Source of the DNA: an uncultured Acidobacteriota bacterium
Lineage (GTDB): Bacteria; Acidobacteriota; UBA6911
Length of the DNA stretch: 64,000 bases
Direction: 5' to 3'
Assembly: GCA_963809485.1 (NCBI GenBank)
Contig: CAWEJX010000008.1
Location: 224,001-288,000, forward strand
A model generated the notes under the pieces. That model was not told the origin of the DNA, ran no database searches, and saw only the letters and a program-made list of their open reading frames with translations. Both the position numbers and the translations under genes were made by a program. Below, one piece after another: positions 19,028 to 49,296 of this stretch (the stretch's first letter is position 1; the number at the start of each line of letters is the position of its first letter).

Positions 19028-19043
19028 CTGTAAATATGTACAG
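19028..19043. promoter_or_regulatory. CTGTMA-N4-TKACAG operator (1 mismatch)
   Basis: CTGTAAATATGTACAG between the divergent transporter and VIT genes. Confidence 0.65.
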
Positions 19044-19063
19044 TATCGGGAAATCATTGGAAA

Positions 19064-19122
19064 TACGGTTTTTCACGGATCTCCACAGATTTGTATCCGT
19101 GAAGATCCGCGCGAATCTATGG
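19064..19122. repeat. CACGGAT/ATCCGTG ~10-nt periodic hairpin
   Basis: TTCACGGATCTCCACAGAT..ATCCGTGAAGATCCGCG; related to 25917-25966 and 29934-29980. Confidence 0.6.
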
Positions 19123-19256
19123 CCGATTCCCATTGCAGCTCAGCCCGATCCGTGCGGCACGTTGTCCGGGATTGGTTAACACGTATAATGTAATGCGCGT
19201 TCGACTTCACATAGAAAAATGCTATATAGTCAATTGTTGGCTGATCGGTATCCTCG

Positions 19257-19955
19257 GTGCAACAACAAACTAATGAGTCGGGAAGCGACGCTATGTTCTT
19301 AGACCACTCTCAGAATCCCAAACGCCTCCTGGATCCTATGGATCGCGTATCGGAAGTGCTGTTTGGGCTGATCATGGTGCTTACGTTCACCGGTTCGTTC
19401 AGCGCCGCCCAGGCGGGCCGTGCCGATATCCGCGAATTGCTGATCGGGGCGCTGGGCTGCAATCTTGCCTGGGGAATTATTGACGCCATCATGTATCTGA
19501 TGGCTTGTCTCAGCGAACGCGGACAGGGAATCCTCACTTTGCGCGCGGTACGCGGCGCCGGAATGGCTGCGGAAGCTCATCGCGCGATTGTCAGCGCGCT
19601 GCCCGAGGGCGTCGCGAGTGTACTTCAACCAACGGAACTGGAAACGATCCGCCAGAGGTTGAACCAACTGCCCGAACCCCCGGCGCGCCCGCGTCTGCAA
19701 AAGGATGACTGGCTTGGCGCTTTTGCGGTGTTCCTGTGGGTGTTTGCCTTCACCTTTCCTGTGGTCATCCCGTTTATATTCATGCACGATGCCCTGTTCG
19801 CTCTTCGGATCTCAAACATCATTGCCGTAGCGATGCTGTTTCTGACGGGGCACGCCTTCGGGCGTTGCGTTGGCTACCGCCCGTTAGTACTTGGATTCTC
19901 CATGGTCTTGCTTGGCATAGTGCTGGCAGGATTAGCCATCGCCCTTGGAGGATAA
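19257..19955 (+). CDS. VIT1/CCC1-like membrane protein
   Basis: LDPMDRVSEVLFGLIMVLTFT, ALGCNLAWGIIDAIMYL, about 5 TM segments; the start may be ATG 19293. Confidence 0.75.
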   Translation: MQQQTNESGSDAMFLDHSQNPKRLLDPMDRVSEVLFGLIMVLTFTGSFSAAQAGRADIRELLIGALGCNLAWGIIDAIMYLMACLSERGQGILTLRAVRGAGMAAEAHRAIVSALPEGVASVLQPTELETIRQRLNQLPEPPARPRLQKDDWLGAFAVFLWVFAFTFPVVIPFIFMHDALFALRISNIIAVAMLFLTGHAFGRCVGYRPLVLGFSMVLLGIVLAGLAIALGG

Positions 19956-20010
19956 GATTCAGGGGTTGTGTCCGGACATAATCCCTTCAGGGTAGTGATA
20001 CAGCATGCCC

Positions 20011-20266
20011 GAATCCATTGGGCCACCGGCTCTGCCGGTGACAGTTTGACAAATACCGGAGCATGCCTTTTACCCGGTTTTCTGACAGCAACCGGAAGAT
20101 AAGCAACGCAAACACTGAATATCGAATATCGAATGTCGAACCGCAGAAGTAATGACCTCGAAATTCATCCTTCGTTATTCGACATTCGATATTCAGTATT
20201 TCTGTCCAGTATTTGTCAAACGGATACTGCCTCACCGGCAGAGCCGAGGGATCTCCCGATGGATTA
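20011..20266. mobile_element. IS200/IS605-like remnant: two left-end-like hairpins facing each other around a heptamer hairpin
   Basis: CACCGGC-TCT-GCCGGTG..TTTGACAAATAC at 20024 and an inverted copy at ~20205-20266 matching 45115-45175; (ATATCGA)n/(TCGATAT)n inside. Confidence 0.6.
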
Positions 20267-22792: not shown

Positions 22793-22867
22793 GCATACCT
22801 CCCGATGAGGGTAGAACTATATCAGTTTTACAGGAATAGGGATCCTTCACATTTCAATCCTCTGCGC

Positions 22868-24584
22868 TTACAGTTTTTGAGGATCGGGCGGGGCCTCAGG
22901 TTCGGTGTAAAACTCGTGGTCCGGCAGTTTGTCTTCTTCACGCCACTTGCGCACCTTCATTGCAGCCTCGTCAGCCTTCCCGGAATCGAGCGGCTCATCT
23001 CTGGTAACGTAAGTGGTTTGGGACGGGAAAGCGATGCTCGTTCCGCTCTTAGCTATTATGTCCATAATCCGAAACAGAAGGTCTTCCTGGACTGCGAGGA
23101 ACTCGGGCACTCCGGCCGCCTTGATATAGGCGAAGATTTCAAGATCCAGAGAAGAGCTGCTCAACCCGACGAACCGGATCCTGGCATCATCCGGATCCAC
23201 CTTCGAATGCCCGCGGAGCATTGTGCGAACCTCGCCAAGCACATATCGCAGCTGGTCCGCCGAGGTTTCATATCGGAGCCCGATCATGTGACGGAACCAG
23301 AATTTATCCCGCATGGAATAGTTCTCGATATTCATTACGGCCAATTGACCATTCGGGATTGCGACAACCGTACGCGAGGGCGTACGGATGCGCGTGGACC
23401 GAATGCCGATGTCCTCAACGGTTCCCAGTTGATCCCCAATCCTGCAGAAGTCGCCCACGCGTATGGGTTCGTCGGAGATGATCATCATGCCGCCGAACAG
23501 GTTCTCGAGCGTCTTTTGGGCCCCCAATGCAACCGCAATACCTCCGACGCCGAGCCCGGTCAGGACTGCGGTCAGGTTTGCGCCCGCGCTATGCAAAAGA
23601 AGGAGGCCTGCCATTACGACTACGGCTGCCTTCAGCAGCCGGCCTAAAAGAGCCCACATTGCGATCTTGCCCTGCATCTGCCGCATCACCAGGTGCCTTG
23701 CGTGCAACGCCGACAGGATTCCTATAAGCTTGATCGCCAGCCATGCCGTACCGACCAGGGCTACCGTGCCGCCCGCGTTTCTCCAGAATTGGCGCATATA
23801 GAGCGTCGCGGACAGGTTTGAAAAAAGAAAAATGACAACGGAGATGAGCACCACACGTATCGGGGCTTTTATGGATGCAAGCCCGCGTTCATCTTCCTCC
23901 CCCGTCAGGCGTCGAAGCGCACGGCGAAGCAACGGGGAAAGCGCACGTGTAACCATCGAGCCGATGGCAATAGCAATGACGAGCGCCAGTACAAAGGCGA
24001 TCCAGCGATAGAGGGGAATCGAAAACAGCTTTGTCTGCACCAGCGACTGTGGAATATGTTTCTCAATCGCCCAATGTGTTGGTCTCTTCGGCCGCTCCGG
24101 GGATGAGGGCCAATGTTTCAGACGCAAACAGCCATATTGCGCCCTGCCCTTCACGTTCCACCCGATCCAGGAGGATATCCAGTTTGCCGGAACTTGTGTC
24201 GATGGTCCCGACCCGTTCCTGCGCATTTTCAAGTCCGTCTGCAAGTTCTCCCTCGGGTTTTCTGCTGAGCCTGGCAAGATCAACCTTCAAATGCCAATCC
24301 AGGACGGTCTGGAGCTGTTGCGCGAGTTTCTGCGCCTGCTCGCCTTTCTTTCGTGTGTGCAGGTATTGCGCGGCCTGAACGTAGTCGCCGAGTTCGGCGG
24401 ATCGGACGAAACCCTTCACCGCGCCGTAGGGCGTGGACCGGCCCAGGAGATCCTCGCCCGCCTTCTGCTTGGAGGCATCGGGCTGGATCCCAAGTGTCTT
24501 TGAAAGCTGTGCAGGGACAGGCCGGACCAGAATCGCGCTCATAACAATTATGAACACCGGCGCGAAAATCCATAACCGTTTCAT
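22868..24584 (-). CDS. mscS: MscS-family mechanosensitive channel with periplasmic N-domain, one frameshift near 24080
   Basis: GLGVGGIAVALGAQKTLENLFGG..PIRVGDFC..GTVEDIGIRSTRIRT, IAFPSQT; N-terminal part (LGRSTPYGAVKGF) in ORF 24063-24632. Confidence 0.88.
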
Positions 24585-24773
24585 ATCTGCCTCATTTATT
24601 GTTTTTATAAGCTTACTGCAATGTCTTGCCAATTCGTCCGTGTTCCTCAGCGCTTTTGTCAGCGTAGGTCAGCGTTGCTGATTTGCTGGAGCTATTACGC
24701 TTCATCAATCCCGCATAATGTGCTCCGGCATATTTGCCCTCTCTGCACCGATCTGAATCTTCTGCATTGGCCC

Positions 24774-25541
24774 CTATTTTGCCTGCTCTTTAAAGAATCG
24801 ACGTTGGTCACTTTCAAAATGATAGAGTTTCGCTACCTCGATTCGCTTGGCCAGGAAGCTGCAGCATAGGATACCAGCCAACATACCCAGTAGTGGACCC
24901 GCCCAATAGATCCACCATCCTTGCCACTGCCCCGAGATTACGGCCGGACCGAAGCTGCGGGCCGGATTTGTGCTTGTCCCTGAAATAGACGCCTCCAAAG
25001 GCACCATGACGGCATAAAGGACTGGCATCATCAGGGGCGTGAACGGACGAATTACTCTGAAACCAAGAAAAAGACACAAGGTGACTATCAACGCCATCGT
25101 TGTGACAGCCTCGCCCATCAGCACCGTAACTGTGCCGTAGCCCTGGCCGGGCAGCGTGGCACCGAACGCAACACTCCTTCCCATGGAGCCCCAGATCATC
25201 AGCGGCAGGCAGCCGATAAACGCTCCTGCCAGTTGCACTATGATATAGGCCAGAGTGGTACGCAAGTTAAGCTTGCCCATAAGACGGAATGCGAGAGTGA
25301 CGGCCGGATTAATATGAGCACCGCTGACTTTGCCGATAGGGGATATGGCAATCGACGCCCCGATACATCCAAACAGGAAACCGGTGATCATCTGCCTGAC
25401 TTTAATATTCGGGATGATTTGGGCTGCAAGGCTGCCCTCGCCAAACATAATTATTACCAGCGAAAGCCCAAAAAACAGCAGGAGCGCTGTGCCGACAAAC
25501 TCAGCCAGATATTCTCGCCAATGCAAGGTCCAGTTCGTCAT
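24774..25541 (-). CDS. Aquaporin / MIP family channel
   Basis: AEFVGT, SGAHINPAVT and STNPARSFGPA (two NPA motifs). Confidence 0.93.
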   Translation of the reverse strand: MTNWTLHWREYLAEFVGTALLLFFGLSLVIIMFGEGSLAAQIIPNIKVRQMITGFLFGCIGASIAISPIGKVSGAHINPAVTLAFRLMGKLNLRTTLAYIIVQLAGAFIGCLPLMIWGSMGRSVAFGATLPGQGYGTVTVLMGEAVTTMALIVTLCLFLGFRVIRPFTPLMMPVLYAVMVPLEASISGTSTNPARSFGPAVISGQWQGWWIYWAGPLLGMLAGILCCSFLAKRIEVAKLYHFESDQRRFFKEQAK

Positions 25542-25726
25542 ATATGTCACCCGGTTGACGGTCCAGTGAACGACGGAACCAGCAATCATCCGTCTATTTT
25601 GAATTTTTTCAGCAGGTGAAAATCGGCTGCCGGCCGCATTCACAGGGGTTTCCTTCCCGCGCCCTTTGTCCGCCGTTGTGGACTTTCACCTGCCTTATAT
25701 TATCCGATCATTTCCAGGGCGACGAA

Positions 25727-25742
25727 CTGTAACTTATGACAG
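25727..25742. promoter_or_regulatory. CTGTMA-N4-TKACAG operator
   Basis: CTGTAACTTATGACAG between the divergent aquaporin and OMP genes. Confidence 0.75.
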
Positions 25743-26751: not shown

Positions 26752-26767
26752 CTGTAAATCTTGACAG
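26752..26767. promoter_or_regulatory. CTGTMA-N4-TKACAG operator
   Basis: CTGTAAATCTTGACAG upstream of the Omp85/kinase-like pair. Confidence 0.75.
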
Positions 26768-27009
26768 TACGCAGTTTCACACCTAACCACTAGGATATGG
26801 AATTGATTTGTGATAGGTTTGGAGCTACTCCTTTAGCCATAAATGGAAAATGGTGATTGAGTTTTAGTAAAAGCAGCAAAATTATGCCAGAAGGCTTTGG
26901 AGCCTGCGTGCCACAGCCTGAAGCATCGATCAAACGCAGGACGGCAGTCGGGCGTCAGCGCCGACAAAATCATCCGGTGCGAAGCGATCCAAGGCGGAGC
27001 AAATTACCT

Positions 27010-28230
27010 ATGAAACTATTTAGACCGATATGGATGGCACTTGCCATGATTGGAGCCGTGCATGTTCTCCTGTGGACTCCGGTGGGGAGGGCTCAGGAGA
27101 GTCGCGCGAATTCCATAGCAAAACAGCAGGAAGACAAATCCAAGCAACTCCAGCCCGAGGTGCAGGATCGGGTCGAGCTGTTCATAAAAAAGTTGACGGA
27201 GGGTGGGTGGTTCTTCAGCGCGACTCCTCGGGGCTTATACCCGTATTTCGACAGCGTCTACTCGGGCGGCGGCTTCACCCTGGGCGCGGGTTACCGGAAA
27301 TATGTCGGGGATTACGCGTTCACGGAGGCGCGCGGCTTATACTCCTTCAAAAACTACAAGAGGATCGAGTTGCGGGCAGTATCGCCGAATCATGCGGCGG
27401 GGCTTCTCGACCTTGAAGCCACAGGCGGATGGATGGATGCCACGCAGATTCCTTACTACGGGCTGGGAATCGATTCGAGCAAAGACGCCGCGTCCAACTT
27501 CCGATTGCAGCAGACTTACATGAAAGGGGGGGTCACCCTGAAGCCGGCCCAGTGGTTTCACTTCCGGGCGACGACGGGCTATGACAAGTATTCGGAGAAG
27601 GAAGGCACGGGCGAATCTCCCACTGTTGGGGATCTTTACGGGCCCGCGACGGCGCCTGCCTTTAACGCCGATCCTTCGTACGTTCACACGGAAGCATCCG
27701 CATCCATTGTAACGGCGCCAGCAGAAGGGTATGCGCGCCGAGGCGGCGTTTACCGGTTCACATTGCACGATTACAGGAATGTGGCGGGGGAGCTTGATAG
27801 CTTCCAGGTGACGCGCGCAGAGGCGGTGCAGCACATCCCGATTCTGCGGGAAACATGGGTTCTCTCGTTTCGTGGCCGGCTGGAATCGGCGCATGGGCCT
27901 TACGAGGACATGCCTTATTACTTGTTGCCGTGGATTGGCAGCGGATCGACCCTGCGCGGCTATGGCACGGGCCGGTTTCGCGACAAGCACAGCCTGCTGA
28001 TGTCGGGTGAATGGAGGTGGATCCCGAACCGCTTCGCGGTGGACATGGCTCTGTTCTGCGATGCGGGAATGGTTGCTCCCCGTTTCAAGGACCTTCACTT
28101 CAGCGATCTGAAATACGACTACGGCGTCGGCATTCGATTTCACGGCCCGGCCATGACTCCGTTGAGATTCGACATTGCACACGGCGACGAGGGATTTCAC
28201 TTCGTTATCTCTTCCTCAGCCCCTTTCTAA
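27010..28230 (+). CDS. Omp85 (BamA/TamA-superfamily) barrel without POTRA domains
   Basis: Signal peptide, GSGSTLRGYGTGRFRD, YGVGIRF, LRFDIAHG, C-terminal Phe. Confidence 0.82.
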   Translation: MKLFRPIWMALAMIGAVHVLLWTPVGRAQESRANSIAKQQEDKSKQLQPEVQDRVELFIKKLTEGGWFFSATPRGLYPYFDSVYSGGGFTLGAGYRKYVGDYAFTEARGLYSFKNYKRIELRAVSPNHAAGLLDLEATGGWMDATQIPYYGLGIDSSKDAASNFRLQQTYMKGGVTLKPAQWFHFRATTGYDKYSEKEGTGESPTVGDLYGPATAPAFNADPSYVHTEASASIVTAPAEGYARRGGVYRFTLHDYRNVAGELDSFQVTRAEAVQHIPILRETWVLSFRGRLESAHGPYEDMPYYLLPWIGSGSTLRGYGTGRFRDKHSLLMSGEWRWIPNRFAVDMALFCDAGMVAPRFKDLHFSDLKYDYGVGIRFHGPAMTPLRFDIAHGDEGFHFVISSSAPF

Positions 28231-28251: not shown

Positions 28252-29928
28252 ATGAATACTCAAACATTTATGAAACATGGAAGGCTGACACAGGCTGCAG
28301 CAATTATGCTGCTTGTGCTTGCCTCGCTGGCGAGCCCGGTTGGTGCGCAGCAGCCTAAATTCTACGATGATGACCCGATCGCGACGGAACCCAACATGTT
28401 CGACGCCTCCGGCGCTCTGGATCGCGACATTGACCTCATGTACGATCTGGCCAGGAACCTTTTTGCGGTGCCGCGAAATCCCACCCTGGTTCGGGCCAAG
28501 AACATCAATTCCATCGACGAAGTGCCCGATTCCGAATGGTTCACCAACCGTATCCTGGCCAGGCCGGTGAGTATTGATGAAGCGGTGAAAGGTCCCGACA
28601 CCAGCCAGGGCCCGGCGCCTGGTAAATTGATTGTTACACGTGCCAAGCGCTCCGGTGTAACCCCGGGATTCACGGTTAAAGACAGCGCCGGCGAGACATG
28701 GTTTATTCAGTTCGATGCTCCAGGACAGTCGGAGGCCGCAAGCGGCGCAACCGTCGTCGCTACAAAGCTATTTCATGCCCTGGGCTACTTCCAATCGGAA
28801 AACTACATCGGCTATCTCGATCCGTCCAACCTGGAAATCGACGCGAAGGCCAAGGTCGATACGCCCTCGGGGCGAGTGCGGGCCATGAAGATGGATGACA
28901 TTAGCAAGGTCCTCTCTCGAGCGGATAAACGGCCGGATGGCACGTACCGCATGCTTGCCAGCCGCAGCATTCCTGGCAGGATTATAGGCGGGTTCAAGTA
29001 TGCAGGGACGCGGAAGGACGATCCCAACGACATCGTGCCGCATGAGCACAGGCGCGAGTTGCGCGCTCTCAAGGTGTTTGGGGCGTGGACGAACCTTGTG
29101 GATATGAAGGCCGGCAATACTCTGGATACGGTGCTGACGCAAAACGGGCGCGGCATTATCCGGCATTATCTGCAGGACGTCGGTTCCACGTTTGGTACCG
29201 GTGCCCTCGCTCCTCGCGAATGGGACGAGGGGTATGAGTATATCTCTGAAAGTGACAAGGCAATAAAGCGCCTCTATACTTTAGGCTTCTATCTCCAGCC
29301 CTGGCAGACCATCCCATACACGGAATACAAGTCCATTGGCCGCTTCGAGGGTGACTACTTCAAGCCGGAGGAGTGGAAGTCGCGCATACCTACGGCAGCC
29401 GCGCTCAACGCGCGCGCGGACGATAATTTCTGGGCTGCCCGCCGTGTGATGGCATTCACCGACGAAATGATCCGGGCTATTGTCAAGACGGGCCAATACA
29501 GCGATCCCGCTGCCGAGAAACACCTGGCGGATGTCCTGATAAAGCGTCGTGACAAAATTGGACAAGCCTACCTGCCGGCCGTGAATCCTCTGGTGAATTT
29601 CCGGCTGGATGAATCGGGTGTTCTGACGTTCGAAAATGCCGCTGTAAGCGCCGGATTTGTGACCGCCCCGCGCGGAGGATACGAAGCACGCTGGTACCGT
29701 TTCGATAACAATACGGGTGCGACCACTCCCATCAGCTCGACCACGGCGCCGCAAGGTTTAAAAATGCAGGCTCCTGCCGCTCTTCCCTCGGGCAACACCG
29801 AGTTCGTCAAGGTTGAAGTGGCCGCAATAGATCCACCCAACAGCTCATGGACTGTTCCCGTGCAAGCTTATTTCCGTAGGCTCGCAGCCGGGTGGAAACT
29901 TGTCGGCCTGCAGCGCCTGCCGGATTAG
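28252..29928 (+). CDS. Exported hypothetical protein with protein-kinase-like (HipA/PI3K/CotH-like) motifs
   Basis: Signal peptide; SGVTPGF Gly loop; WTNLVDMKAGNT (DxKxxN); YLQDVGSTFG (DFG-like). ORF is certain, the fold is inferred. Confidence 0.65.
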   Translation: MNTQTFMKHGRLTQAAAIMLLVLASLASPVGAQQPKFYDDDPIATEPNMFDASGALDRDIDLMYDLARNLFAVPRNPTLVRAKNINSIDEVPDSEWFTNRILARPVSIDEAVKGPDTSQGPAPGKLIVTRAKRSGVTPGFTVKDSAGETWFIQFDAPGQSEAASGATVVATKLFHALGYFQSENYIGYLDPSNLEIDAKAKVDTPSGRVRAMKMDDISKVLSRADKRPDGTYRMLASRSIPGRIIGGFKYAGTRKDDPNDIVPHEHRRELRALKVFGAWTNLVDMKAGNTLDTVLTQNGRGIIRHYLQDVGSTFGTGALAPREWDEGYEYISESDKAIKRLYTLGFYLQPWQTIPYTEYKSIGRFEGDYFKPEEWKSRIPTAAALNARADDNFWAARRVMAFTDEMIRAIVKTGQYSDPAAEKHLADVLIKRRDKIGQAYLPAVNPLVNFRLDESGVLTFENAAVSAGFVTAPRGGYEARWYRFDNNTGATTPISSTTAPQGLKMQAPAALPSGNTEFVKVEVAAIDPPNSSWTVPVQAYFRRLAAGWKLVGLQRLPD

Positions 29929-32869: not shown

Positions 32870-32894
32870 ATCTTTTCCCTCAGTCATGGCTCAC

Positions 32895-34288: not shown

Positions 34289-34304
34289 CTGTAAGTTTTT
34301 ACAG
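34289..34304. promoter_or_regulatory. CTGTMA-N4-TKACAG operator
   Basis: CTGTAAGTTTTTACAG, 50 nt upstream of the DUF3300 start. Confidence 0.75.
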
Positions 34305-35818: not shown

Positions 35819-35881
35819 ATATTCCCCCTTTAGTGAGGCTCTGCGCACGATAAAGATAAAATCTTTTGCCTATGCCGGGGA

Positions 35882-35897
35882 CTGTCAGTTTTGACAG
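35882..35897. promoter_or_regulatory. CTGTMA-N4-TKACAG operator
   Basis: ACTGTCAGTTTTGACAGT between the divergent STAS gene and PAS kinase. Confidence 0.75.
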
Positions 35898-39690: not shown

Positions 39691-39751
39691 CCAATTCTCC
39701 TTTCTAATTTGTAATGACCTCGATAATATGGGCACGATCAGAGCTGAGAAA

Positions 39752-39767
39752 CTGTCAGAACTGACAG
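39752..39767. promoter_or_regulatory. CTGTMA-N4-TKACAG operator
   Basis: CTGTCAGAACTGACAG, 62 nt upstream of the OMP start. Confidence 0.75.
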
Positions 39768-39939
39768 GGGTGCTCCCGTTCATGCCTGAACCGGCTGCGA
39801 TCACCGGGTACAAACCGCAATAAATGGAGTTCACCAGCGCTTTTGTCCCCTGTATGCCTGCATTGTCAAATAATGAATCTGCCAATGGTTTAGGTCCCGC
39901 AATAATTCGGGTGGAGGGCTGCTGAATCAACAGCACCCT

Positions 39940-40998
39940 TTAGTATTTCAATCCTACGGAGCGCGGCGAATACAGGTTGAAGTCGAGGGCGTCGGCAAAG
40001 TACTCAATGACCTTCTGAGCCTTTACGCTATTCCCCGCTTCATCAAGCGGCGGAGCAAAAACCGCCATAGCTCCCTTGCCCGGGACGATGGCAACAATTC
40101 CGCCACCGACTCCGCTCTTGGCCGGAAGGCCGACATGCCATGCCCAGCTGCCCGAACCGTCATACAATCCCGCCATCATCATGGTTGAAAGAATGTATGG
40201 GACATTTTCCGCCTTGATGATCTGCTCGCCGGATGCAGGATTCTTGCCGCTGTTCGCCAGCGTTGCCCCCATGCGAGCCAGTTGGGCCACGTTCACGCCA
40301 ACGGAGCACTGCTTGGTGTAGACATCGACTGATTCAAACGGATCGGCGTAGATGCGTTCATATTTCGCCAGCAGCATTGCCAGCGCCTTATTTCCGGTGT
40401 TGGTCGCGGCTTCCGACTTGTAGACCTCGTCGATCAGTTTCAGCTTTGCGCCCGCACACCGGCTGTAATAGTCCAGGATCTTGTTCCACTTCTCATCCGC
40501 CGTCTTTGCGGAAATCAAACTGACGGTAGCGATCGCACCGGCGTTTACAAACGGGTTACCCGTGTGCGTCGGCATGTCCGCAACCGCAAAAACCGAATTA
40601 AAAGCCCGTCCGGTGGGCTCGGATCCGATTTTCTCGAAAACCCTTGCGGCGCCCAATTCGTCCATTGCCATCGCCATGGAGAACACCTTAGAGATCGACT
40701 GAATCGAAAACGAGTAGTCGATATCACCCATTGTCAGGACCTGGTTGTCGGTCGTTACTATCGCAATGCCAAAGAGGTTTGAGGGAACTTTGGCCAGGTA
40801 GGGAATGTAGTCCGCGTTTTTGCCTCCCGGGTCCTTCTTGAATTTGTCGTACGCCTCCCGAACGGCCGCCTCCGCCCTGGCCCTGTTGGGTGCAACCGGG
40901 CTGGACTTCTGAGCAAGGACCGGCAGAGGCGATGACGCAAAAGTCATGACAATAAAAAGTGCGACAAGCATCCGTGTTTGAATTTTTTCCCTCAACAT
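39940..40998 (-). CDS. glsA: Glutaminase A with N-terminal signal peptide
   Basis: NADYIPYL, FSIQSISK (SxxK), EPTGRAFNS, NPFVNAGAI, GLPAKSGVGGG, PPLDEAGNSV. Confidence 0.95.
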   Translation of the reverse strand: MLREKIQTRMLVALFIVMTFASSPLPVLAQKSSPVAPNRARAEAAVREAYDKFKKDPGGKNADYIPYLAKVPSNLFGIAIVTTDNQVLTMGDIDYSFSIQSISKVFSMAMAMDELGAARVFEKIGSEPTGRAFNSVFAVADMPTHTGNPFVNAGAIATVSLISAKTADEKWNKILDYYSRCAGAKLKLIDEVYKSEAATNTGNKALAMLLAKYERIYADPFESVDVYTKQCSVGVNVAQLARMGATLANSGKNPASGEQIIKAENVPYILSTMMMAGLYDGSGSWAWHVGLPAKSGVGGGIVAIVPGKGAMAVFAPPLDEAGNSVKAQKVIEYFADALDFNLYSPRSVGLKY

Positions 40999-41078: not shown

Positions 41079-41094
41079 CTGTCAAAACTTACAG
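41079..41094. promoter_or_regulatory. CTGTMA-N4-TKACAG operator
   Basis: CTGTCAAAACTTACAG, 81 nt upstream of glsA. Confidence 0.75.
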
Positions 41095-41272: not shown

Positions 41273-41288
41273 CTGTAATAAATGACAG
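41273..41288. promoter_or_regulatory. CTGTMA-N4-TKACAG operator
   Basis: CTGTAATAAATGACAG in the glsA/DUF4136 divergent region. Confidence 0.7.
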
Positions 41289-41691
41289 TTTCGCGCTACG
41301 TACCGTTGACCTTAATCTGTGCTTTATGGAATGAGCCAGCCTGTAAAAACCGGTTGGCCGCGGTGCAATTGGGATGCTTGGATAACGGGAAAAGACAGTG
41401 CAAACCATATTCATCCGCATTTATCACATGGCATTGATTTGGAGGCGGAATCCCAGCTGTTCTTCGTGGCATTTCGTGCCTGCCTCCCATGGTTGGCTAA
41501 GTCGGCGGCTACGACTGCCGGTTCTTAAAATTGCAAAATCCGAAAAGGGATTCGCATTGGGGATCGGCAGATCCCGCCGCGCAGCAATAATTGCGAGGGC
41601 GATGGAGAACGTGCAATAATTCCGACAATATTATATTTTGTGCTTCGAACAGGTAACAATAGCTTTCAAATATGGCAAGGAGAATATAAAA

Positions 41692-42237
41692 ATGACCAAC
41701 AGGAGGATGACGCTATTGGCCTTTTTGGGATTGGGCTTCGTGCTCTGTTTCTGCGCGCTTCTACAGGCGCAGGATGTCAAATACAACTATGATCCGGGCA
41801 CGGACTTTTCAAAATTCAAAACCTACAAGTGGGTCGATGTCCCGGATGCCCGGTACCCCGATCAATTGACTTCCAATATGATTAAACAGGCCATCGATGG
41901 ACAGCTGGTGTCGAAAGGGCTAACCAAGACTGAGGACGACAAAGCCGATTTGTATGTCGCCTATCAGATAGCTGTTAGTGAAGAGACGCAGTGGTATGCG
42001 ACAGGATATGGCGGCCGCTATCGTACGATGGGTGGCATGGGAACGGCAACCAGTTCGACTATCAAAATCGGCACGCTGGTTTTGGACATGTACGACGTGA
42101 CGGACAAAAAGCAGGTCTGGCACGGAGATGCCACCAAGACCCTGGACCCAAGCAAGGATCCCAAAAAGAACCAGGAGAAAATGGAAAAAGTTGCCAAGAA
42201 GCTTCTGAAGAACTATCCGCCTCCGGTCAAGAAATAG
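41692..42237 (+). CDS. DUF4136 domain protein
   Basis: Signal peptide, YDPGTDFSKFKTYKW, GTLVLDMYD..VWHG, KLLKNYPP; AAGGAG RBS. Confidence 0.88.
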   Translation: MTNRRMTLLAFLGLGFVLCFCALLQAQDVKYNYDPGTDFSKFKTYKWVDVPDARYPDQLTSNMIKQAIDGQLVSKGLTKTEDDKADLYVAYQIAVSEETQWYATGYGGRYRTMGGMGTATSSTIKIGTLVLDMYDVTDKKQVWHGDATKTLDPSKDPKKNQEKMEKVAKKLLKNYPPPVKK

Positions 42238-42455
42238 AGGACGTCAGCATGTACGCCTGAGTCTGGCAGCATGACGGCAGCCGAAAAGGCTCGAGGTTTT
42301 TCAGCCTGGCTGTCAGTCATAACTGTCATGGAAAAGGCTCCTTACTGCAGATGGGCACAGAGCTCGGGCTTTCTCTCTAAAGCCTGCGCTTCGCCTCCGC
42401 GAAGTTTGGTGTTCTCCGCGCATCTGCAGCTCGCCCTAATGTGGGAAAAAGGTTC

Positions 42456-43508
42456 ATGCATACTGCCCGTTTGAATCCACTCTGTTTCTACGTTTTGCTA
42501 ACCGTCACTTGCGTCATCCTGCCGGTGTCCGCGCGCGAGAAGACAGACGTGGTTATCCTGAAAAACGGAGACCATATCTTCGGTGAGATCAAGAGCCTGG
42601 AGAGGGGCATGCTCAACGTCAAGACCGATTCGATGAGCACCGTCTCGATCAAATGGCAGGACGTCAAAAGCGTCACAAGCAATTTTCTCTACACAATTCA
42701 GGACACCCAGGGCCTGATCTATGTCGGAAGCCTGCAGCCTGCCGCTGACGAGCGGCATATGAACATCGAAGGTTTGCAGGGGGAGTGGGTCGCATACCTG
42801 GACCCCATTTCCATTGTGCAAATCCAGGAACTGGGGATCAGCCGGTGGAAGCGCTTTTCGGGCTCCGCCGATCTCGGCTACACTTTCACAAAAGCCAGTG
42901 ATCGCACCCAATTTAACTTTTCGGGAGATGTCACCTACCGCACCCAGCATTACTCAAGCCAGCTGTACTACAGTTCCATATTTGGCACCTCGCAGGGAGA
43001 AACTGACGCAGATCGGAAACTCCTAACTCTCAACGGCACGCGGGAGTTTACAGGGAAATGGCTGGCATATGGGCAGGCGGGCTTTGAACACAACCTGGAG
43101 CTTCAACTGGACCGTCGATATTCATTTCTCGGAGGGCCGGGTTACAGGATTGCGCAAAGCAACAGGTCACTGGTTACGGCGATCGCGGCCGCTGCTTTCA
43201 CTCGTGAAAGTTACTATGGCGAGGTTTCCATGAAAAACGCCGAGGGCTTCTTCGGAATCGACGCACAATTCTTCAAGCTCTATTCGCCGAAGTTCGACAT
43301 CGTCAATCAACTTGTGTTTCTGCCCAATTTCACAACCAGGGGCCGACGCCGTTTGGAGTATAACGCGAAGGTCCGTCTGGAGGTCTTCAGGGACTTTTTC
43401 GTCACGCTGACCTTCTACGACAGTTACGACAGCAAGCCTCCATCGGCAAATGCTTCCCAAAACGATTACGGCTTTACCACCGGCCTCAGCTGGTCCTTCC
43501 GACGATAG
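42456..43508 (+). CDS. DUF481-like outer-membrane beta-barrel
   Basis: DVVILKNGDHIFGEIK, GSADLGYTF, YDSKPP, C-terminal TTGLSWSF. Confidence 0.8.
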   Translation: MHTARLNPLCFYVLLTVTCVILPVSAREKTDVVILKNGDHIFGEIKSLERGMLNVKTDSMSTVSIKWQDVKSVTSNFLYTIQDTQGLIYVGSLQPAADERHMNIEGLQGEWVAYLDPISIVQIQELGISRWKRFSGSADLGYTFTKASDRTQFNFSGDVTYRTQHYSSQLYYSSIFGTSQGETDADRKLLTLNGTREFTGKWLAYGQAGFEHNLELQLDRRYSFLGGPGYRIAQSNRSLVTAIAAAAFTRESYYGEVSMKNAEGFFGIDAQFFKLYSPKFDIVNQLVFLPNFTTRGRRRLEYNAKVRLEVFRDFFVTLTFYDSYDSKPPSANASQNDYGFTTGLSWSFRR

Positions 43509-43548
43509 GCAATTCAGATCACAAACCCTTGCAGATCTCGGCCGATGC

Positions 43549-43941
43549 AGTCAGGCACCTCCGGCAAAGCCGGAGGCTTGAAAGATTTGAACCGCTCAAA
43601 GCGGTTGGACTAGTTTCGCCGGTCTTGAACGCTGACTTACGCGGGCAAAAGCCGATGAGGCGCTTCCGATCCCCGCAGGGGCCAGCGCTCCGCGCTGGAC
43701 AGTTTTCTGCGGCGGCACTGTGGCAAGCGCCGTGCGGCAAGCAGATGAAGGGTATGAGAAACCGGGCGTTTGCCACAGTGCCGCCGCAGAAAACTCCATC
43801 GGAAGCGCCTCATCGGCTTTTGCTCGCCGACCCTCGCCGAACAAATCGGCGTTTGTCAGCGCTTTTATCAGCGTTTCTCAGCGTTTCAAATTACGGAACT
43901 GTCAAACTCTTTGAGTCCCCCGGCAGAGCCGATGGTTTACC
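43549..43941 (-). mobile_element. Family A element, full length, copy A3
   Basis: Colinear with A1 except that the central 43-bp loop (43727-43769) is inverted. Confidence 0.78.
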
Positions 43942-44115
43942 AATGTAATTATGACAACCCGTGAAAACCCGTGAACGATCGAGAAGCGGATGCGATAGTC
44001 TGCCTGAGGATGATCCGGATGGAAAACCGGAAAGGCAGACAACAACATCCAGCAAAGCAGTGGGAGTACCGATGTATTTATATGTCCTGCCCGGAATCCA
44101 GCGCGGCGCGGCATA

Positions 44116-44131
44116 CTGTCACAACTGCCAG
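44116..44131. promoter_or_regulatory. CTGTMA-N4-TKACAG operator (1 mismatch)
   Basis: CTGTCACAACTGCCAG, about 66 nt upstream of 44197. Confidence 0.55.
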
Positions 44132-44196: not shown

Positions 44197-45117
44197 ATGA
44201 TTTGGTTGAGCATCGGTGAATCAATTCGAGGCTGTGGCGCCGTAACCCTGTCGATACTCTTGTTGACGGCTCTTTGGATTTGTCCCTGTCTTGCCGCCAA
44301 TCTTGAGGAAACAAGTACTGTACCGGAAGATAGAGGAACCGATGCTGCAAAGCAGGTTGAATCGGCTTCGCTGAATACCCCGATCTCCGACCAGTTGGCC
44401 AGACCTGAAAGCAGTCTTCCAGCCCTGAATACAATGGCAGCCAGTACAAACGCAATTGAAGCCGTGGAGGCTCCGCGCCGCCATATAGACTGGTCGGGGC
44501 TCATCAACCAGTCCGCCCTTTTCCTATCCATCGAACAGGGTTTCCGTTTGGGAACCCAGCCGGGCACAAGGGAAGCTTTGAAAGGTCCCTTCTTCGATGA
44601 CTGGTTTACCAGCGTCAAGTCGACGAAAGGGTGGGGGGATGCGGATGATTTCCTGGCCAATTACATCGGCCACCCGATGCAGGGTTCCGTAACCGGCCAT
44701 ATATTTGTGCAAAACGATCCCGGCGGCCGCTATCAGACCTTCAACTGGTCTTCCGCCTACTGGAACAGCCGGCTCAAGGCCACGCTGTGGAGCGCAATAT
44801 ACAGCACACAATTCGAGCTCGGACCGATCAGCGAAGCATCCATAGGCAATGTCGGCTATCCCGGATCATCGTTGAGCGGGGCCGTGGATCTGGTCATGAC
44901 GCCTCTGGGTGGGCTCGGTTGGCAGGTCGGCGAAGATGCTCTCGACAAGTATCTTGTCATGAGGATCGAAACCTGGACCAGCAACCCCGTTATACTGATG
45001 TTGGCTCGCGGATTTCTGAATCCTACCCGGTCCTTCGCCAACGTCATGCGCTTGAAGGTTCCCTGGCACCGCGACACTCGCCCGGGAATATGGAACACCT
45101 CCGTTGACAATCGTTAA
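44197..45117 (+). CDS. Exported/membrane hypothetical protein (DUF3943-like)
   Basis: GGAGGAG RBS; WGDADDFLANYIGHPMQGS, FELGPISEASIGN, DLVMTPLGG. Family assignment tentative. Confidence 0.65.
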   Translation: MIWLSIGESIRGCGAVTLSILLLTALWICPCLAANLEETSTVPEDRGTDAAKQVESASLNTPISDQLARPESSLPALNTMAASTNAIEAVEAPRRHIDWSGLINQSALFLSIEQGFRLGTQPGTREALKGPFFDDWFTSVKSTKGWGDADDFLANYIGHPMQGSVTGHIFVQNDPGGRYQTFNWSSAYWNSRLKATLWSAIYSTQFELGPISEASIGNVGYPGSSLSGAVDLVMTPLGGLGWQVGEDALDKYLVMRIETWTSNPVILMLARGFLNPTRSFANVMRLKVPWHRDTRPGIWNTSVDNR

Positions 45118-45499: not shown

Positions 45500-46951
45500 C
45501 TAGCGACGGATACCGGAACTGACGTACCCTTCCCCTCGAAGGACGGTCTTCGCCGCCTGCAAAAGCTCGATTCCGACGTCCACCTTGAGAACGTAGCCCA
45601 GCGCTCCGGCCCTGAGCGCCGCACCGACAAAGTCCGGGGAATCATGCTGGGTGAGGAAAAGTATTTTCGCATCGGGGGCAACGGTGCGTATCCTGGAGGC
45701 CGCTTCCAATCCGTGGACCAATGGAAGGCCGATATCCAGCAGTACCAGGTCGGGTTTCAGTTCCGCCGCCTTTTGGACCGCTTCCGCCCCGTCCGCAGCC
45801 TCGGCCAGGAGTTTCAATTCAGGCAGTTCTTTCAATATTGTGGAGACAGCCTTGCGGAATGCCTGCCTGTCATCGGCAACGAGTATCGTTATCCCCTGCG
45901 ACTGTTGCCCGGCTTCGCTCTTGAAATCCCGATGTTCCGCAATCTCAAGCGCCGGCTGGAAAGCTCTTTCCAAAGGCAAAGCCACGTGAAATGCAGCGCC
46001 ACGGTCGGCATTATTTTCAGCCCATATCCTTCCGTTGTGTCCAAGCACAATGGAACGGCTCAGAAAAAGCCCCATGCCCAACCGGTCCGGTTTGGTTGTG
46101 ACGAATACTTTGAAGATCGAGTCAAGACTCTCTTCAGGGATTCCGGCGCCCGTGTCCACCACATCCAGGATAGCTTCCCTTTCGGTTGCCCGGGTTTTCA
46201 GGACCATCTTCCGGGGCTGGTCGGCAGATTCCATCGCTTCAAACGCGTTGACAATGAGACTCAGGATTACCTGCTGCAACTGGATGCGGTCCCCGGCAAT
46301 CGAGGGAATGGATGCGCCGAAATCCAGATCGACGGCAATTTTCCGGATAAGGAAATCATTGCGCAGGATCGACAGGACTTCCTCAATCAGTTCATTGAAC
46401 CCAAGCGGCCGGCGCTCAGTCCCAGCAGGCTTAAGCATGGATCTCAAGCCACGAACCACTTCCGCAGCCCGCCGGTCATCGGCAACAATATCCTCGACGA
46501 TTTCCTCCAATTCCTTTTTGTCCGCTGCTCCGCTTCCCATCAATAGCTGCGCCGCTTCCGCATTGCCCAGAATGGCCGCCAGCGGTTGGTTGATCTCGTG
46601 CGCCAGCGAGGATAAAAGCTCCCGCACCGCGGCGACACGCGAGAAACCTGCAAGTTCGCGGCGCAGCCGCTCCTGGCTTGCGCGAATCAATCCTTCCTTG
46701 CGTCGCCGTCCGGCAGATTTTACCAGCAAAGCGACAATGAGTATTGTCTCGATCAGGAGCAGCAATGCGATACCGGCAAGCCACCATTGGTACGATTGCC
46801 AGAATGTCGCAGCGCTGCGATCAGATTCGACAATTGACGTGGCTGCCCGTAATCCTGGTGCGGCTTGACCGGCAATGGAAATCAGCCACACGAGTTTAAT
46901 CGATCGTGCCACGTTATTGCGAGCATTGGGCATTACGGGTGAATATGTCAC
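45500..46951 (-). CDS. Hybrid membrane histidine kinase with C-terminal NarL-type receiver
   Basis: One TM segment (WWLAGIALLLLIETILIVALL), LAHEINQPL, HATPase, then ILVADD..VLLDIGLP..FLTQH..GYVLK. Start uncertain. Confidence 0.85.
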   Translation of the reverse strand: MTYSPVMPNARNNVARSIKLVWLISIAGQAAPGLRAATSIVESDRSAATFWQSYQWWLAGIALLLLIETILIVALLVKSAGRRRKEGLIRASQERLRRELAGFSRVAAVRELLSSLAHEINQPLAAILGNAEAAQLLMGSGAADKKELEEIVEDIVADDRRAAEVVRGLRSMLKPAGTERRPLGFNELIEEVLSILRNDFLIRKIAVDLDFGASIPSIAGDRIQLQQVILSLIVNAFEAMESADQPRKMVLKTRATEREAILDVVDTGAGIPEESLDSIFKVFVTTKPDRLGMGLFLSRSIVLGHNGRIWAENNADRGAAFHVALPLERAFQPALEIAEHRDFKSEAGQQSQGITILVADDRQAFRKAVSTILKELPELKLLAEAADGAEAVQKAAELKPDLVLLDIGLPLVHGLEAASRIRTVAPDAKILFLTQHDSPDFVGAALRAGALGYVLKVDVGIELLQAAKTVLRGEGYVSSGIRR

Positions 46952-47132
46952 GGGTCATCTATTGCGTCAAGCAACAAACAGTTACCCGATGGATCCAAAT
47001 TCCTTGAGTCCTGGAGGCTTGGAAGTTAACAATAATGCGGATTCTCCCACGCCGGAGTTCCTTCAAGGCATTGACACCCGCTATTGCCTGTGGTTTGCTG
47101 GAAGGCAGGGCGGTGAACGAGGGATATACTAT

Positions 47133-48161
47133 ATGGAAGAAAAGACAAACCAGTTTTGCGCCACGACGGATGAGCTGCCGGCCATGATCTGGGCGTCAGG
47201 CCCGGATGGGCTCCGGATATACTTCAACAGGCGTTGGCTTGATTTCACCGGGCGGCCCATTCAATTGGAACTCCATGGCCGGTGGACCGAAGGTGTTCAC
47301 CCGGATGACCTCACGCGCTGCCTGGGTCTCTATTCCAGAATCCTTGATCTACGGCAGGAATTTCGGGTCGAATACAGATTGCGCCGCTTTGACGGGCAAT
47401 ATCGCTGGGTGCTTGAAACCGGCGCCCCTTGCCTTGACACAGACGGATCGTTGACCGGCTACAGCGCGGTCTGCTTCGACATCACGGAAAGCAAGGCTGA
47501 CGCCGAAGCACTCTCGCGAGCCACCCGGCGTCTTATTGAGGCACTGGACCAGGAACGCATTCGAATCGCAGGAGAGCTTCACGAAGACATCGGTTCCTCA
47601 CTGTCAATCCTGGGCATTGAGCTGATGAGAGCCGGCCAGCCGGTTGAGGGCTCATCCGGGGTAAAATATCCGGACATGCAGGAGATCTATCAAAAGCTGC
47701 AGGAAATTGGATCAAAGGTTAGCCGCCTTTCCAATCAATTGCAGCCCTCGATACTGAAGTACTTCGGGCTGGCAAAAGCGGCCGAAAGCGAATGCCGGGA
47801 GTTTTCCAAAATGCACCAGGTACCTGTATCTTGTTCCTGCAACAGTATCCCCGCCAGGCTGGATCCTGATGTTGCGCTCAATTTCTACAGAGTTTTGCAG
47901 GAAGCACTCAGCAATGCGGCCAGACATGGCCACGCCATCGGCATAGCCGTGGATTTGACCGGAACCTCCGATGAACTCCATCTCGTGGTGTCGGATGACG
48001 GGATTGGCTTCGATGCGGGGCATGAATGCTTTCCGGGTGGGCTTGGCCTGATCAGCATGCGGGAGAGAATGCGACGGGTCGGCGGCCAATTGGAAATATC
48101 TTCCCGGCCGGGCCGGGGGGCAAAAATATCGTGCCGCGCACCACTGGCTCCATCCATATAG
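47133..48161 (+). CDS. PAS + HisKA_3 (NarX/UhpB-type) histidine kinase
   Basis: PAMIWASGPDG..VHPDD..EYRLRR, ERIRIAGELHEDIG, QEALSNAARH, DDGIGFD, GLGLISMRER. Confidence 0.9.
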   Translation: MEEKTNQFCATTDELPAMIWASGPDGLRIYFNRRWLDFTGRPIQLELHGRWTEGVHPDDLTRCLGLYSRILDLRQEFRVEYRLRRFDGQYRWVLETGAPCLDTDGSLTGYSAVCFDITESKADAEALSRATRRLIEALDQERIRIAGELHEDIGSSLSILGIELMRAGQPVEGSSGVKYPDMQEIYQKLQEIGSKVSRLSNQLQPSILKYFGLAKAAESECREFSKMHQVPVSCSCNSIPARLDPDVALNFYRVLQEALSNAARHGHAIGIAVDLTGTSDELHLVVSDDGIGFDAGHECFPGGLGLISMRERMRRVGGQLEISSRPGRGAKISCRAPLAPSI

Positions 48162-48372
48162 CCGCCAGAGCGTTACAGCAGGCACTGCGCGGTATAAAGC
48201 TTGAGGGAGTTTTTCCTTCGCCCTCCTCCTGCGGCAAGCTTTTCCAGGCTTAACCAAAGTATAAATTGAAAAACTCGCCAAAATCTGCAAAATTGACTTC
48301 TGGACGCAAGAGAATATTGGCCAAGCGGCAGGCAGAGGGCTCTCTGTTGATCTCCATGGGAGAAAAATAGCA

Positions 48373-49032
48373 GTGGCAAAATTCCGCGTAGTGCTTGCGG
48401 ATGACCACAAATTGGTGTTGCAGGCGTGCGCCAAGATGCTGGAATCCGAATTCGATGTTCCCGCAGTCTTTACGGATGGACGGGCTCTGCTCAAGGCCGT
48501 GCCTGCGCTCAAGCCGGATGCCATCGTACTCGATATCGGCATGCCTCTCTTGAACGGATTGGATGCCGGCAGACAGTTGAAAACGCTGCTGCCATCGGTG
48601 AAGCTGATCTTTCTTACGATGCATGAGGATCCCGGCCTTGCCCACGAAGCGATCCAGGCCGGAGCCTCGGCCTTTTTGCTCAAGACATCCGCCGCCGCAG
48701 AACTCTCCAAAGCTATCCGCGAAGCACTCAAGGGACGCGTGTACGTGACGCCGGCCATAGCCAGGAAGATGGAGGAATCGTTTATCCGCAATCCGGAGGC
48801 CAAGCATGCCTCAAGGGAATTAACCCCGCGCCAGCGCGAGGTCCTGCAGTTGCTGGCCGAAGGCCGCCCGATGAAAGAAGCAGCTTACATACTGAAGGTG
48901 AGCACCCGAACCATCGCGTTCCACAAGTATCGAATGATGGAACAACTGGGATTGAAAAGCTCTGCAGAGCTCATCCAGTTCGCCGTCAGCCAGCATCTTG
49001 TATCCCGGCAGCCTGACCTGACGCTGGATTGA
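48373..49032 (+). CDS. NarL/LuxR-family response regulator
   Basis: VVLADDH, LDIGMPLLNGLDA, FLTMH, LTPRQREVLQLLAEGRPMKEAA..TIAFHKYRMM; GTG start. Confidence 0.93.
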   Translation: MAKFRVVLADDHKLVLQACAKMLESEFDVPAVFTDGRALLKAVPALKPDAIVLDIGMPLLNGLDAGRQLKTLLPSVKLIFLTMHEDPGLAHEAIQAGASAFLLKTSAAAELSKAIREALKGRVYVTPAIARKMEESFIRNPEAKHASRELTPRQREVLQLLAEGRPMKEAAYILKVSTRTIAFHKYRMMEQLGLKSSAELIQFAVSQHLVSRQPDLTLD

Positions 49033-49197
49033 TTGGCTGAATCAAGGCTGGCAAGGAGATTGGGTTCTGCCATATCCGCGTTTGCTTAATGCCTGGCCTG
49101 TTCGTGTCCGCAGACCTGGCCAAACCCATCCGTGGAAAGCCCCGGGCCTGGAAATCAGTAAATTCTGGAGTCTTTGAGGCAGAGGCCGGGCAAACCA

Positions 49198-49213
49198 CTG
49201 TCATTGTTTACAG
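49198..49213. promoter_or_regulatory. CTGTMA-N4-TKACAG operator
   Basis: CTGTCATTGTTTACAG upstream of 49406. Confidence 0.72.
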
Positions 49214-49280
49214 TCCCTCCGGGATTCGTGCCCTGGGTTGCCGCCCCGGTTGCGTCCGCACTTCATACGCTGCCGATCGA

Positions 49281-49296
49281 CTGTAACAATTGACAG
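49281..49296. promoter_or_regulatory. CTGTMA-N4-TKACAG operator
   Basis: CTGTAACAATTGACAG; its TTGACA could double as a -35 with TAAAAT at 49311 (short spacer). Confidence 0.72.

Follow-up and report, generated by a model that had tools for sequence, protein, structure and literature searches.

A 16-bp palindrome, CTGTMA-N4-TKACAG, recurs upstream of genes in a 64,000-nucleotide stretch of DNA from an uncultured Acidobacteriota bacterium (contig CAWEJX010000008.1, positions 224,001 to 288,000). This stretch is referred to below as the window, or as C8:224001-288000, with C for contigs, G for genomes and L for loci; positions given without a contig are those of the window. The palindrome, hereafter the box, is predicted to be the operator of a regulon, and the response regulator encoded at 48373-49032 (+) of the same window probably binds it and activates the genes that follow. 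Binding by this regulator, activation rather than repression, the partnership with a kinase and the physiological role of the regulon are all points that we infer from sequence. In the open-access full-text literature, neither a regulon of this kind nor its box was found to be described for Acidobacteria. The mechanism proposed for this apparently undescribed regulon is a textbook one, namely that of a two-component activator working at a class II site.

In the proposed mechanism, the cytoplasmic PAS/HisKA_3 kinase encoded at 46875-48161 would phosphorylate the regulator on Asp54, and other kinases of the cluster may feed into the regulator as well. A regulator dimer would bind the two half-sites TGTCA/TGACA of the box and would recruit RNA polymerase as a class II activator. 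This mode of recruitment is suggested because the box abuts a weak -35 element (TTg...) and has its centre near -43.5. In the source genome, the box would in this way switch on approximately 16 promoters, mostly those of envelope proteins. This genome is a 95.7% complete metagenome-assembled genome (MAG) of 6.04 Mb, divided over 21 contigs and with a G+C content of 55.6%.

Sequence and promoter context of the box

In the window, nine exact copies of CTGTMANNNNTKACAG (CTGTMA-N4-TKACAG) are present; 100 dinucleotide shuffles contain 0.01 on average and never more than 1. Allowing one mismatch adds the copies at 19028 and 44116, which brings the number to 11 (shuffles: mean 0.29, maximum 3). All nine exact copies reported in the original prediction, at 25727, 26752, 34289, 35882, 39752, 41079, 41273, 49198 and 49281, were recovered by the pattern search, as were its two one-mismatch copies. 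The calculation behind its chance count also holds: with all bases equally frequent, 4^-10 x 2^-2 x 64000 gives about 0.015 copies in 64 kb. With a weight matrix of 22 nt, trained on the 14 exact copies of the genome, the 11 boxes score 18.2-26.7 bits and the next-best position of the window scores 9.2 bits; the set of boxes in the window is sharply bounded. The confinement to 19-49.3 kb that had been proposed thus holds within the window, where no further copy is found, but not genome-wide, as boxes are present elsewhere on the contig.

The extended consensus of the box is A-CTGTCA-wwww-TGACAG-T. The copies share 16-18 bp only, the central 4 nt being variable and the flanks being different in every copy, except for a favoured A before and a favoured T after the core. 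Because the flanks vary among all copies, the box is regarded as a short operator-like element and not as part of a longer repeat. All 11 boxes are intergenic and each of them is located upstream of a gene start, in agreement with the original claim. The box at 39752 falls within the longest open reading frame (ORF) at that place, 39079-39936 (-). It is counted as intergenic because the actual gene start is the ATG at 39690 (MKKVFVVVAML...).

The distribution of the box in the source genome is strongly uneven. There are 14 exact copies in 6.04 Mb, and at a threshold of at least 17 bits the matrix detects 22 matches, 17 of which are located on C8 between 135,392 and 273,296, i.e., within 138 kb or 2.3% of the genome. 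Eleven of these 17 are the boxes of the window. The other six (C8:135392, 142660, 144197, 151699, 161002 and 165381) are grouped in a second cluster, which precedes the window by 80-110 kb. What appeared as a 30-kb island in the window belongs to a larger regulon with two clusters, of which it is one. The remaining five matches, one on C21 (a good match), three on C20 and one on C7, are the only ones in the approximately 5.9 Mb outside both clusters. Three of them, C20:1120561, C20:1265102 and C7:42511, have no -10 hexamer at +24/+25, whichever way they are read, and are probable chance matches. Altogether, the source genome has about 16 box-bearing promoters, 15 of which are on one contig. 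No tRNA genes that could mark the borders of an island are present within the window.

As a control, a reversed pattern was used. It has eight matches in the source genome, all of which belong to an unrelated hairpin repeat, GGGGACAGTCACGAATGTCCCC. This repeat is found at eight places (e.g., C1:535266, C4:166983 and C7:302590), and other genomes of the genus contain 10-26 copies of it (G011, G017, G331). The high counts of the reversed control in the source genome and its congeners are therefore due to this repeat and not to base composition.

The highest-scoring box of the genome (27.2 bits), at C8:135392-135407 (L093:4392-4407), is located where two ORFs converge, between their 3' ends; one encodes an AI-2E transporter and the other is 177 aa long. 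TANNNT hexamers are present at +24 on both of its sides. This box might drive the expression of a small or antisense RNA, or the ORF calls at this place might be wrong.

The position of the box relative to other promoter elements was determined for 70 boxes that could be oriented towards a single downstream gene, 17 from the source genome and 53 from public loci around homologues of the regulator, which are described below. Counted from the box, 20 of these have a TANNNT hexamer that begins at +24 and another nine have one that begins at +25, while any other offset between 1 and 60 is found 0-3 times. On the opposite side of the box, away from the gene, seven begin at +24 and one at +25. Directly after the box there is a T at +1 in 54 and at +2 in 41 of the 70 cases; of the -35 position, just TT(g) is kept. 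The same spacing is found in G254, a genome from another family, in which the regulator is 56% identical and encoded on another contig than the boxes: all 17 matrix matches have TANNNT at +24/+25, in exactly one orientation. If the hexamer is the -10 element (-12 to -7), the box would reach from about -51 to about -36 and be centred at -43.5 (between -42.5 and -44.5). Judged by these predicted elements, the layout is that of a class II activator-dependent promoter, with the site against a weak -35 and at a fixed distance from the -10. The fixed position relative to the putative -10 hexamer, predicted to be that of a class II site, supports the activating role that had been assigned to the regulator in the original prediction. 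No RNA run is among the sequencing runs listed for the window, and the DNA runs share 0.05-0.09 of the sampled words with it.

The regulator and its association with the box

The proposed binder of the box (48373-49032, +) consists of a receiver domain (REC) and a helix-turn-helix (HTH) domain of the GerE/LuxR-C type. The receiver domain (PF00072, E 4.8e-24) contains, by eye, all the residues expected of it, namely those of the acidic pocket (D10 and D11), the phospho-acceptor D54 and the conserved T82 and K104, and the GerE domain (PF00196, E 6.1e-16) spans residues 150-204. With its receiver, its GerE HTH and an adjoining HisKA_3 kinase, the protein is predicted to be a regulator of the NarL/FixJ type. 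None of the NCBIfam equivalogs for NarL, UvrY/GacA, MctR, UhpA, FixJ, RcsB and EvgA matches it above the curated cut-off; the best scores are 129 for MctR (cut-off 300), 122 for PRK15369 (cut-off 242) and 110 for UvrY/SirA/GacA (cut-off 280). Its recognition helix, RTIAFHKYRMME, follows the motif RTxAFHKYRMME, which is near-invariant in 80 homologues. In a six-frame scan of the source genome, where 11 GerE proteins are found over the cut-off, this motif occurs once. The second REC and GerE protein encoded in the window, at 6165-6782, has a different recognition helix. A paralogue of the regulator with 50% identity, encoded within C20:1262671-1268267 (L096), likewise has a different recognition helix, KTVEFHKAKLMRE. 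The paralogue gene adjoins genes for a hybrid PAS kinase and a lone receiver protein, and between the latter two there is a 19.3-bit box with no -10 hexamer at the usual distance. The box C20:1265102 is located 2.5 kb from this paralogue.

Two histidine kinase genes are found beside the regulator gene. The presumed cognate sensor, encoded at 46875-48161 (+), is a histidine kinase with PAS, HisKA_3 and HATPase domains and no membrane segment. Matches were obtained for PAS_3, HATPase_c and HisKA_3, the last one (E 8.1e-4) falling short of the curated cut-off. Residues 201-423 match the NCBIfam models of MctS, UhpB and NarQ/NarX, and the first 86 residues match no domain. The divergent neighbour, encoded at 45500-46951 (-), is a hybrid histidine kinase (HisKA, HATPase and REC) that presumably takes part in the same signalling. 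At their 5' ends, the ORFs of both kinases share 77 nt; therefore at least one of the starts has been called too early, probably that at 46875.

The presence of the box follows that of the regulator at several phylogenetic distances. Among 24 genomes of the same genus, an orthologue that is 68-78% identical is found only in G005, G018 and G010, the best match elsewhere being 49% identical. These three genomes contain four, five and three exact boxes, of which two, four and three, respectively, are on the contig of the regulator, mostly within a few kb. The other 21 congeners have 0-3 scattered boxes, and 16 of them have none. In 80 public loci around homologues of the regulator (52-78% identity; 1,358,357 bases in total), there are 36 exact boxes in 23 loci, compared to zero matches of the reversed control pattern. 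The matrix finds 89 matches in these loci, compared to the five in approximately 5.9 Mb of the source genome outside its clusters; 70 of the 89 are outside crude ORF calls that cover 87% of the DNA. Finally, in an even draw of 400 genomes from the phylum, tallied by hand and with E<=1e-65 as the threshold for a homologue, the 11 regulator-positive genomes contain 34 exact boxes (1, 1, 4, 0, 14, 2, 1, 10, 1, 0 and 0) and the other 389 contain 101 in total. The background tallies for the phylum include two genomes flagged as unpublished, G034 and G186, to which no specific point is tied.

Moreover, in other genomes the box is often located upstream of the regulator itself. Among 101 ORFs downstream of boxes in the loci of other genomes, 18 encode a receiver domain, nine a GerE domain and six a HisKA_3 domain. 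The regulator gene has an upstream box in L023, L027, L028, L029 and L036, and the gene of its kinase type in six loci; these two rank first among the genes that follow a box in other genomes. Autoregulation of this kind would be expected of the protein that binds the box. Together, the co-occurrence at the genus and phylum level, the putative autoregulation elsewhere and the unique recognition helix argue for 48373-49032 as the binder, which had been the candidate from the start.

A number of observations weigh against this reading. The 80 loci were selected by means of the regulator, and enrichment alone cannot separate the regulator from a gene that travels along with it. In 39 of the 80 loci there is no match of at least 17 bits, and many loci from high-GC lineages have none within 10 kb. 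Three of the 11 regulator-positive genomes in the phylum sample are without an exact box. As the phylum scan scored just seven first-look candidates per genome, its regulator negatives are soft. When six negatives with at least three boxes were searched again, G157 and G424 were found to carry a homologue flanked by boxes; in G193, G062, G178 and G328, which have 4-6 exact boxes each, no homologue of the regulator was found at E<=1e-45. In the source genome, there is no box upstream of the operon of the kinase and the regulator, the best site near the kinase start scoring 1.4 bits, and the argument from autoregulation is therefore drawn from other genomes. With respect to the promoters, TANNNT is found at +24 to +26 in nine of the 17 oriented boxes of the source genome, and the strongest promoter-proximal box of the window, 49281, has its sole TANNNT (TAAAAT) at +15 instead of at +24. 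Lastly, the predicted targets in G254 (an ABC1 kinase, a TLC-type carrier, a radical-SAM/SPASM enzyme, MscS, AIM24, DUF2092 and DUF3616) differ greatly from those in the source genome, with MscS alone in common, which weakens any single physiological interpretation.

The regulator might repress its targets or act both ways, for example by occluding a -35 element inside the box. NarL-family proteins both activate and repress, and the promoter-proximal half of several boxes reads TTGACA; at 49281, the hexamer at +15 would give this internal TTGACA a spacer of 15 nt. However, the dominant -10 position (+24/+25 in 29 of the 70 oriented boxes and in all 17 of G254) leaves a gap of 24-25 nt from the internal TTGACA, which is too long for a sigma-70 spacer, and the weak conservation of the -35 position beside the box (TTg) is typical of activator-dependent promoters. 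Repression or dual action is accordingly considered unlikely.

Slightly less probable again is that the box is bound by another factor and that the response regulator merely co-travels with it. The candidate is the Crp/Fnr-type protein encoded at C8:151767-152465, a serious rival binder that is nevertheless disfavoured. FNR-type operators are 5-N4-5 palindromes, typical of the Crp/Fnr family, and TGTCA-N4-TGACA has this 5-4-5 layout. The gene for the Crp-type factor is itself preceded by a box in the source genome as well as in L019, L023 and L027, and it adjoins the regulator gene in about 10 of the 80 loci. On the other hand, G018 is the only one of 40 relatives in which an orthologue of this factor is found, and at E<=1e-30 there is none in G005 and G010, which do have clustered boxes; of the 80 loci, 11 have an orthologue. 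Furthermore, the five closest loci (L013-L017) have no Crp-type gene within 10 kb, yet contain 2-4 box matches each, and the genes that are most frequently preceded by a box are those of the regulator and its kinase type.

A role of the boxes as LexA (SOS) operators, or as lux boxes for an acyl-homoserine-lactone-dependent LuxR protein, is very improbable. CTGT-N8-ACAG is the core of the gammaproteobacterial SOS box and equals the core of the box described here, which also resembles the lux box. The SOS reading is rejected, as neither the single lexA gene nor the single recA gene has a CTGT-N8-ACAG in the 500-600 nt before it (best sites -4.0 and -1.6 bits) and no DNA-repair gene is found among the predicted targets; a location mainly before recA/lexA-type genes, which had been named as evidence against a local regulon, is thus not what is observed. 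The quorum-sensing reading is rejected too, since the autoinducer-binding domain PF03472 has no match in the whole genome (95.7% complete) and the regulator has a receiver domain instead. Finally, the boxes are clustered in a genome that holds other repeats such as GGGGACAGTCACGAATGTCCCC, but with a shared part of just 16-18 bp, a variable centre, differing flanks, 70 of 89 matches outside ORFs and a -10 hexamer at constant spacing towards the gene, a dispersed repeat without regulatory role (the ends of REP or MITE elements) is rejected as an explanation, its probability being negligible.

Predicted target genes

The predicted targets of the regulator in the window were assigned with Pfam and NCBIfam and are given here in the order of the boxes, with distances from the end of the box to the start codon. 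The box at 19028-19043 (21.5 bits) has one mismatch, its distal half being CTGTAC, and has no clear -10. It is located 127 nt upstream of 17914-18900 (-), which encodes an outer-membrane protein (OMP) of the Phenol_MetA_deg type. The end of this gene is overlapped by a Na/Ca exchanger gene (16784-17947). Just past this first box-controlled row, at 13334-16763 (-), there are genes for pyruvate:ferredoxin oxidoreductase subunits and a rubrerythrin-like protein, which hint at an anaerobic or microaerobic lifestyle. The exact box at 25727-25742, with TAATAT at +25 on its minus side, precedes by 83 nt a row of an aquaporin (MIP) gene, 24774-25643, and an MscS channel gene, 22868-24283 (both -); these genes (22868-25643) are presumably co-transcribed. 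The box at 26752-26767 (exact; TAGGAT at +24) is followed after 89 nt by a row on the plus strand, composed of an Omp85-like gene (26857-28230) and a gene for an exported protein of no known family (28252-29928). The latter had been labelled kinase-like, a label that finds no support in Pfam or NCBIfam, where the protein has no match.

On the minus strand, the exact box at 34289-34304 is located 49 nt before the start of DUF3300, the first gene in a row with DUF2950 (31899-34239). Both genes are split. DUF3300 is divided over the ORFs 33721-34239 and 32891-33823, with the N-terminal ORF overlapping the C-terminal one, and DUF2950 over 32521-32832 and 31899-32390, which cover the profile parts 1-61 and 173-273. 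These could be frameshifts, possibly assembly errors of the long-read MAG. A relative (L014) likewise has a separate N-terminal ORF of 168 aa. The exact box at 35882-35897 (TATCTT at +24, minus side) is found 33 nt upstream of a STAS (SpoIIAA-like) gene, 35462-35848, the true start of which is probably later; a weakly DUF4136-like gene, 34757-35407, follows in the same row (-). The box at 39752-39767 (exact; TATTAT at +24) lies 61 nt upstream of 39079-39690 (-), encoding an outer-membrane beta-barrel protein with a signal peptide.

The next two exact boxes face in opposite directions. The one at 41079-41094 precedes by 80 nt a glutaminase gene on the minus strand (39940-40998), and the one at 41273-41288 precedes, by 109 or 349 nt, a row on the plus strand (41638-43948) that encodes a DUF4136 lipoprotein-like protein, a DUF481 OMP and a 139-aa ORF. 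The second one-mismatch box, at 44116-44131 (18.2 bits), has a TGCCAG half, a variant that recurs in at least 10 boxes of other loci. It is found 65 nt upstream of 44197-45117 (+), which encodes an exported protein of no known family. At the end of the series, 49198-49213 and 49281-49296 form a tandem pair of exact boxes, 83 bp apart from centre to centre. They are located 192 and 109 nt, respectively, upstream of 49406-49891 (+), which encodes an exported four-helix protein of 161 aa from an unnamed family.

This 161-aa protein has no Pfam or NCBIfam match. Protein-atlas searches lead to LTXXQ/CpxP-like and Metal_resist clusters with scores of 0.84-0.86, to be taken as leads only. An AlphaFold2 model based on an alignment of seven sequences has four long helices (mean pLDDT 78.8), for which Foldseek gives no match in the PDB at E<=0.001. 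A Spy/CpxP-like identity of the modelled protein is neither supported nor excluded. The family comprises exported four-helix proteins with a length of about 135 residues; members are found in L023, L027, L031, L039, L040 and L060. Their invariant positions include F64, W65, Y68, Y71, R137, Q140 and P158, and their genes repeatedly adjoin those of the regulator family.

In the second cluster, the first genes behind the boxes encode an Amidohydro_2 protein, a GH63/MGH1-like glycosidase, a Crp-type factor followed by a SpoIIE-type (PP2C) phosphatase, a second DUF3300 protein (C8:161056), and a DcuA/DcuB carrier for C4-dicarboxylates followed by a lyase of the aspartase/fumarase class. A BON-domain protein also belongs to the set formed by this cluster and C21. 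Of the 16 first genes of the window, the second cluster and C21, 13 encode an N-terminal signal-like segment or several membrane spans, as judged by eye and with a crude check of hydrophobicity. A signal-like segment was found in the same way, with a hydrophobicity window and by eye, in the glutaminase, in the Amidohydro_2 protein (C8:142728-143831) and in the lyase after DcuA/DcuB (C8:166849-168333). An exported aspartase-like enzyme would be unusual.

For several targets, homologues in other genomes have an upstream box as well. This is the case for orthologues of the Phenol_MetA OMP in L020, L024 and L026, for DUF3300 homologues in L014, L015 and L020 and at C8:161056 of the source genome, for the orthologues of DUF4136 in L013 and of DUF481 in L014, for GH63 in L058, and for homologues of the 161-aa protein in L027 and L039.

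Most predicted targets are envelope proteins, including five outer-membrane proteins, the aquaporin, DUF3300/DUF2950, DUF4136, the BON-domain protein, the glutaminase and the amidohydrolase (both predicted to be exported), and the aspartase-like lyase with its carrier. Signalling proteins are present too, namely the STAS protein and the Crp-type factor with its PP2C phosphatase. The combination of water and mechanosensitive channels, BON, OMPs and exported enzymes that release ammonia (the glutaminase and the aspartase-like lyase) would fit an envelope, osmotic or acid stress programme. Confidence in this role is low, as the set of targets is different in distant genomes. It appears that the cis-regulatory logic is conserved and that the controlled genes are not. 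Tentatively, and with more doubt than confidence, the system may be viewed as a portable cassette that is found throughout the Acidobacteriota, in which one regulator family with an invariant helix, one 16-bp box and one class II geometry are maintained, while the genes are swapped between lineages.

If so, the parts of this cassette stay constant from 52% to 78% protein identity, the controlled genes tend to accumulate in chromosomal clusters, and the regulator would have overall control over an accessory programme for envelope, osmotic or acid stress. Moreover, there would be a sequence rule by which sets of co-regulated genes can be predicted from metagenome bins. Acidobacteriota are among the most abundant bacteria in soil, with few cultured members; their gene regulation is hardly known, and almost no transcriptional regulon has been defined. 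For the source genome, sequence alone provides a candidate operator, a likely regulator and kinase, a promoter architecture and approximately 16 predicted co-regulated promoters. It also suggests a shared expression context for DUF3300, DUF2950, DUF4136, DUF481 and an unnamed exported four-helix protein. The box can be searched for in any Acidobacteriota genome.

Comparison with known systems

One parallel is that of LuxR and TraR at their lux boxes, such as the one of luxI in Vibrio fischeri. The two systems have in common the GerE/LuxR-C fold, a CTG...CAG dyad and a site just upstream of the -35, which in the present case is a predicted element. The lux box is reported to be an element of 20 nt centred 42.5 nt upstream of the start (PMC7585371), to which the centre of about -43.5 derived here from the -10-like hexamer can be compared. 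Unlike the 20-nt lux box, the box described here is 16-18 bp long and has an AT-rich centre of 4 nt. Unlike LuxR, the regulator has a phospho-receiver and not an autoinducer domain, so that its input would come from a histidine kinase instead of a diffusible signal. Of the parallel with lux boxes drawn in the original prediction, the likeness of the DNA site and its predicted geometry stands; membership of the family does not.

UvrY, GacA and SirA are REC and GerE proteins too, and their family is the third-best NCBIfam match of the regulator. Their box is reported to be TGTAAG-N6-CTTACA, with TGTAAGNNNNNNCTTACA as the published 18-nt palindrome, and UvrY to act on small-RNA genes from a site centred near -180 (PMC4682653). 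The letters TGTAA/TTACA of the half-sites are shared, whereas the half-sites of the present box (TGTMA-N4-TKACA) are 4 nt closer to each other, and the predicted targets are protein genes with a class II position of the box.

In the PDB, the regulator matches VraR (3.9e-26), DesR (2.6e-22), RcsB (8.8e-22), NarL (2e-21), DevR (3c3w; 5.7e-20) and EvgA (5.4e-17). With respect to the organization of the regulon, there is a similarity to the dormancy regulon of DosR/DevR in Mycobacterium tuberculosis: this regulator belongs to the NarL family too, has a palindromic box, is served by at least two sensor kinases and controls some tens of targets, which are partly clustered on the chromosome. The box sequence and the targets are different from those predicted here, and the kinases of the present system have PAS instead of GAF domains. 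NarL, VraR/LiaR, DesR, RcsB and EvgA share the two-domain architecture of the regulator. Unlike these solved NarL/FixJ regulators, the family of 48373-49032 has a recognition helix of its own, RTxAFHKYRMME.

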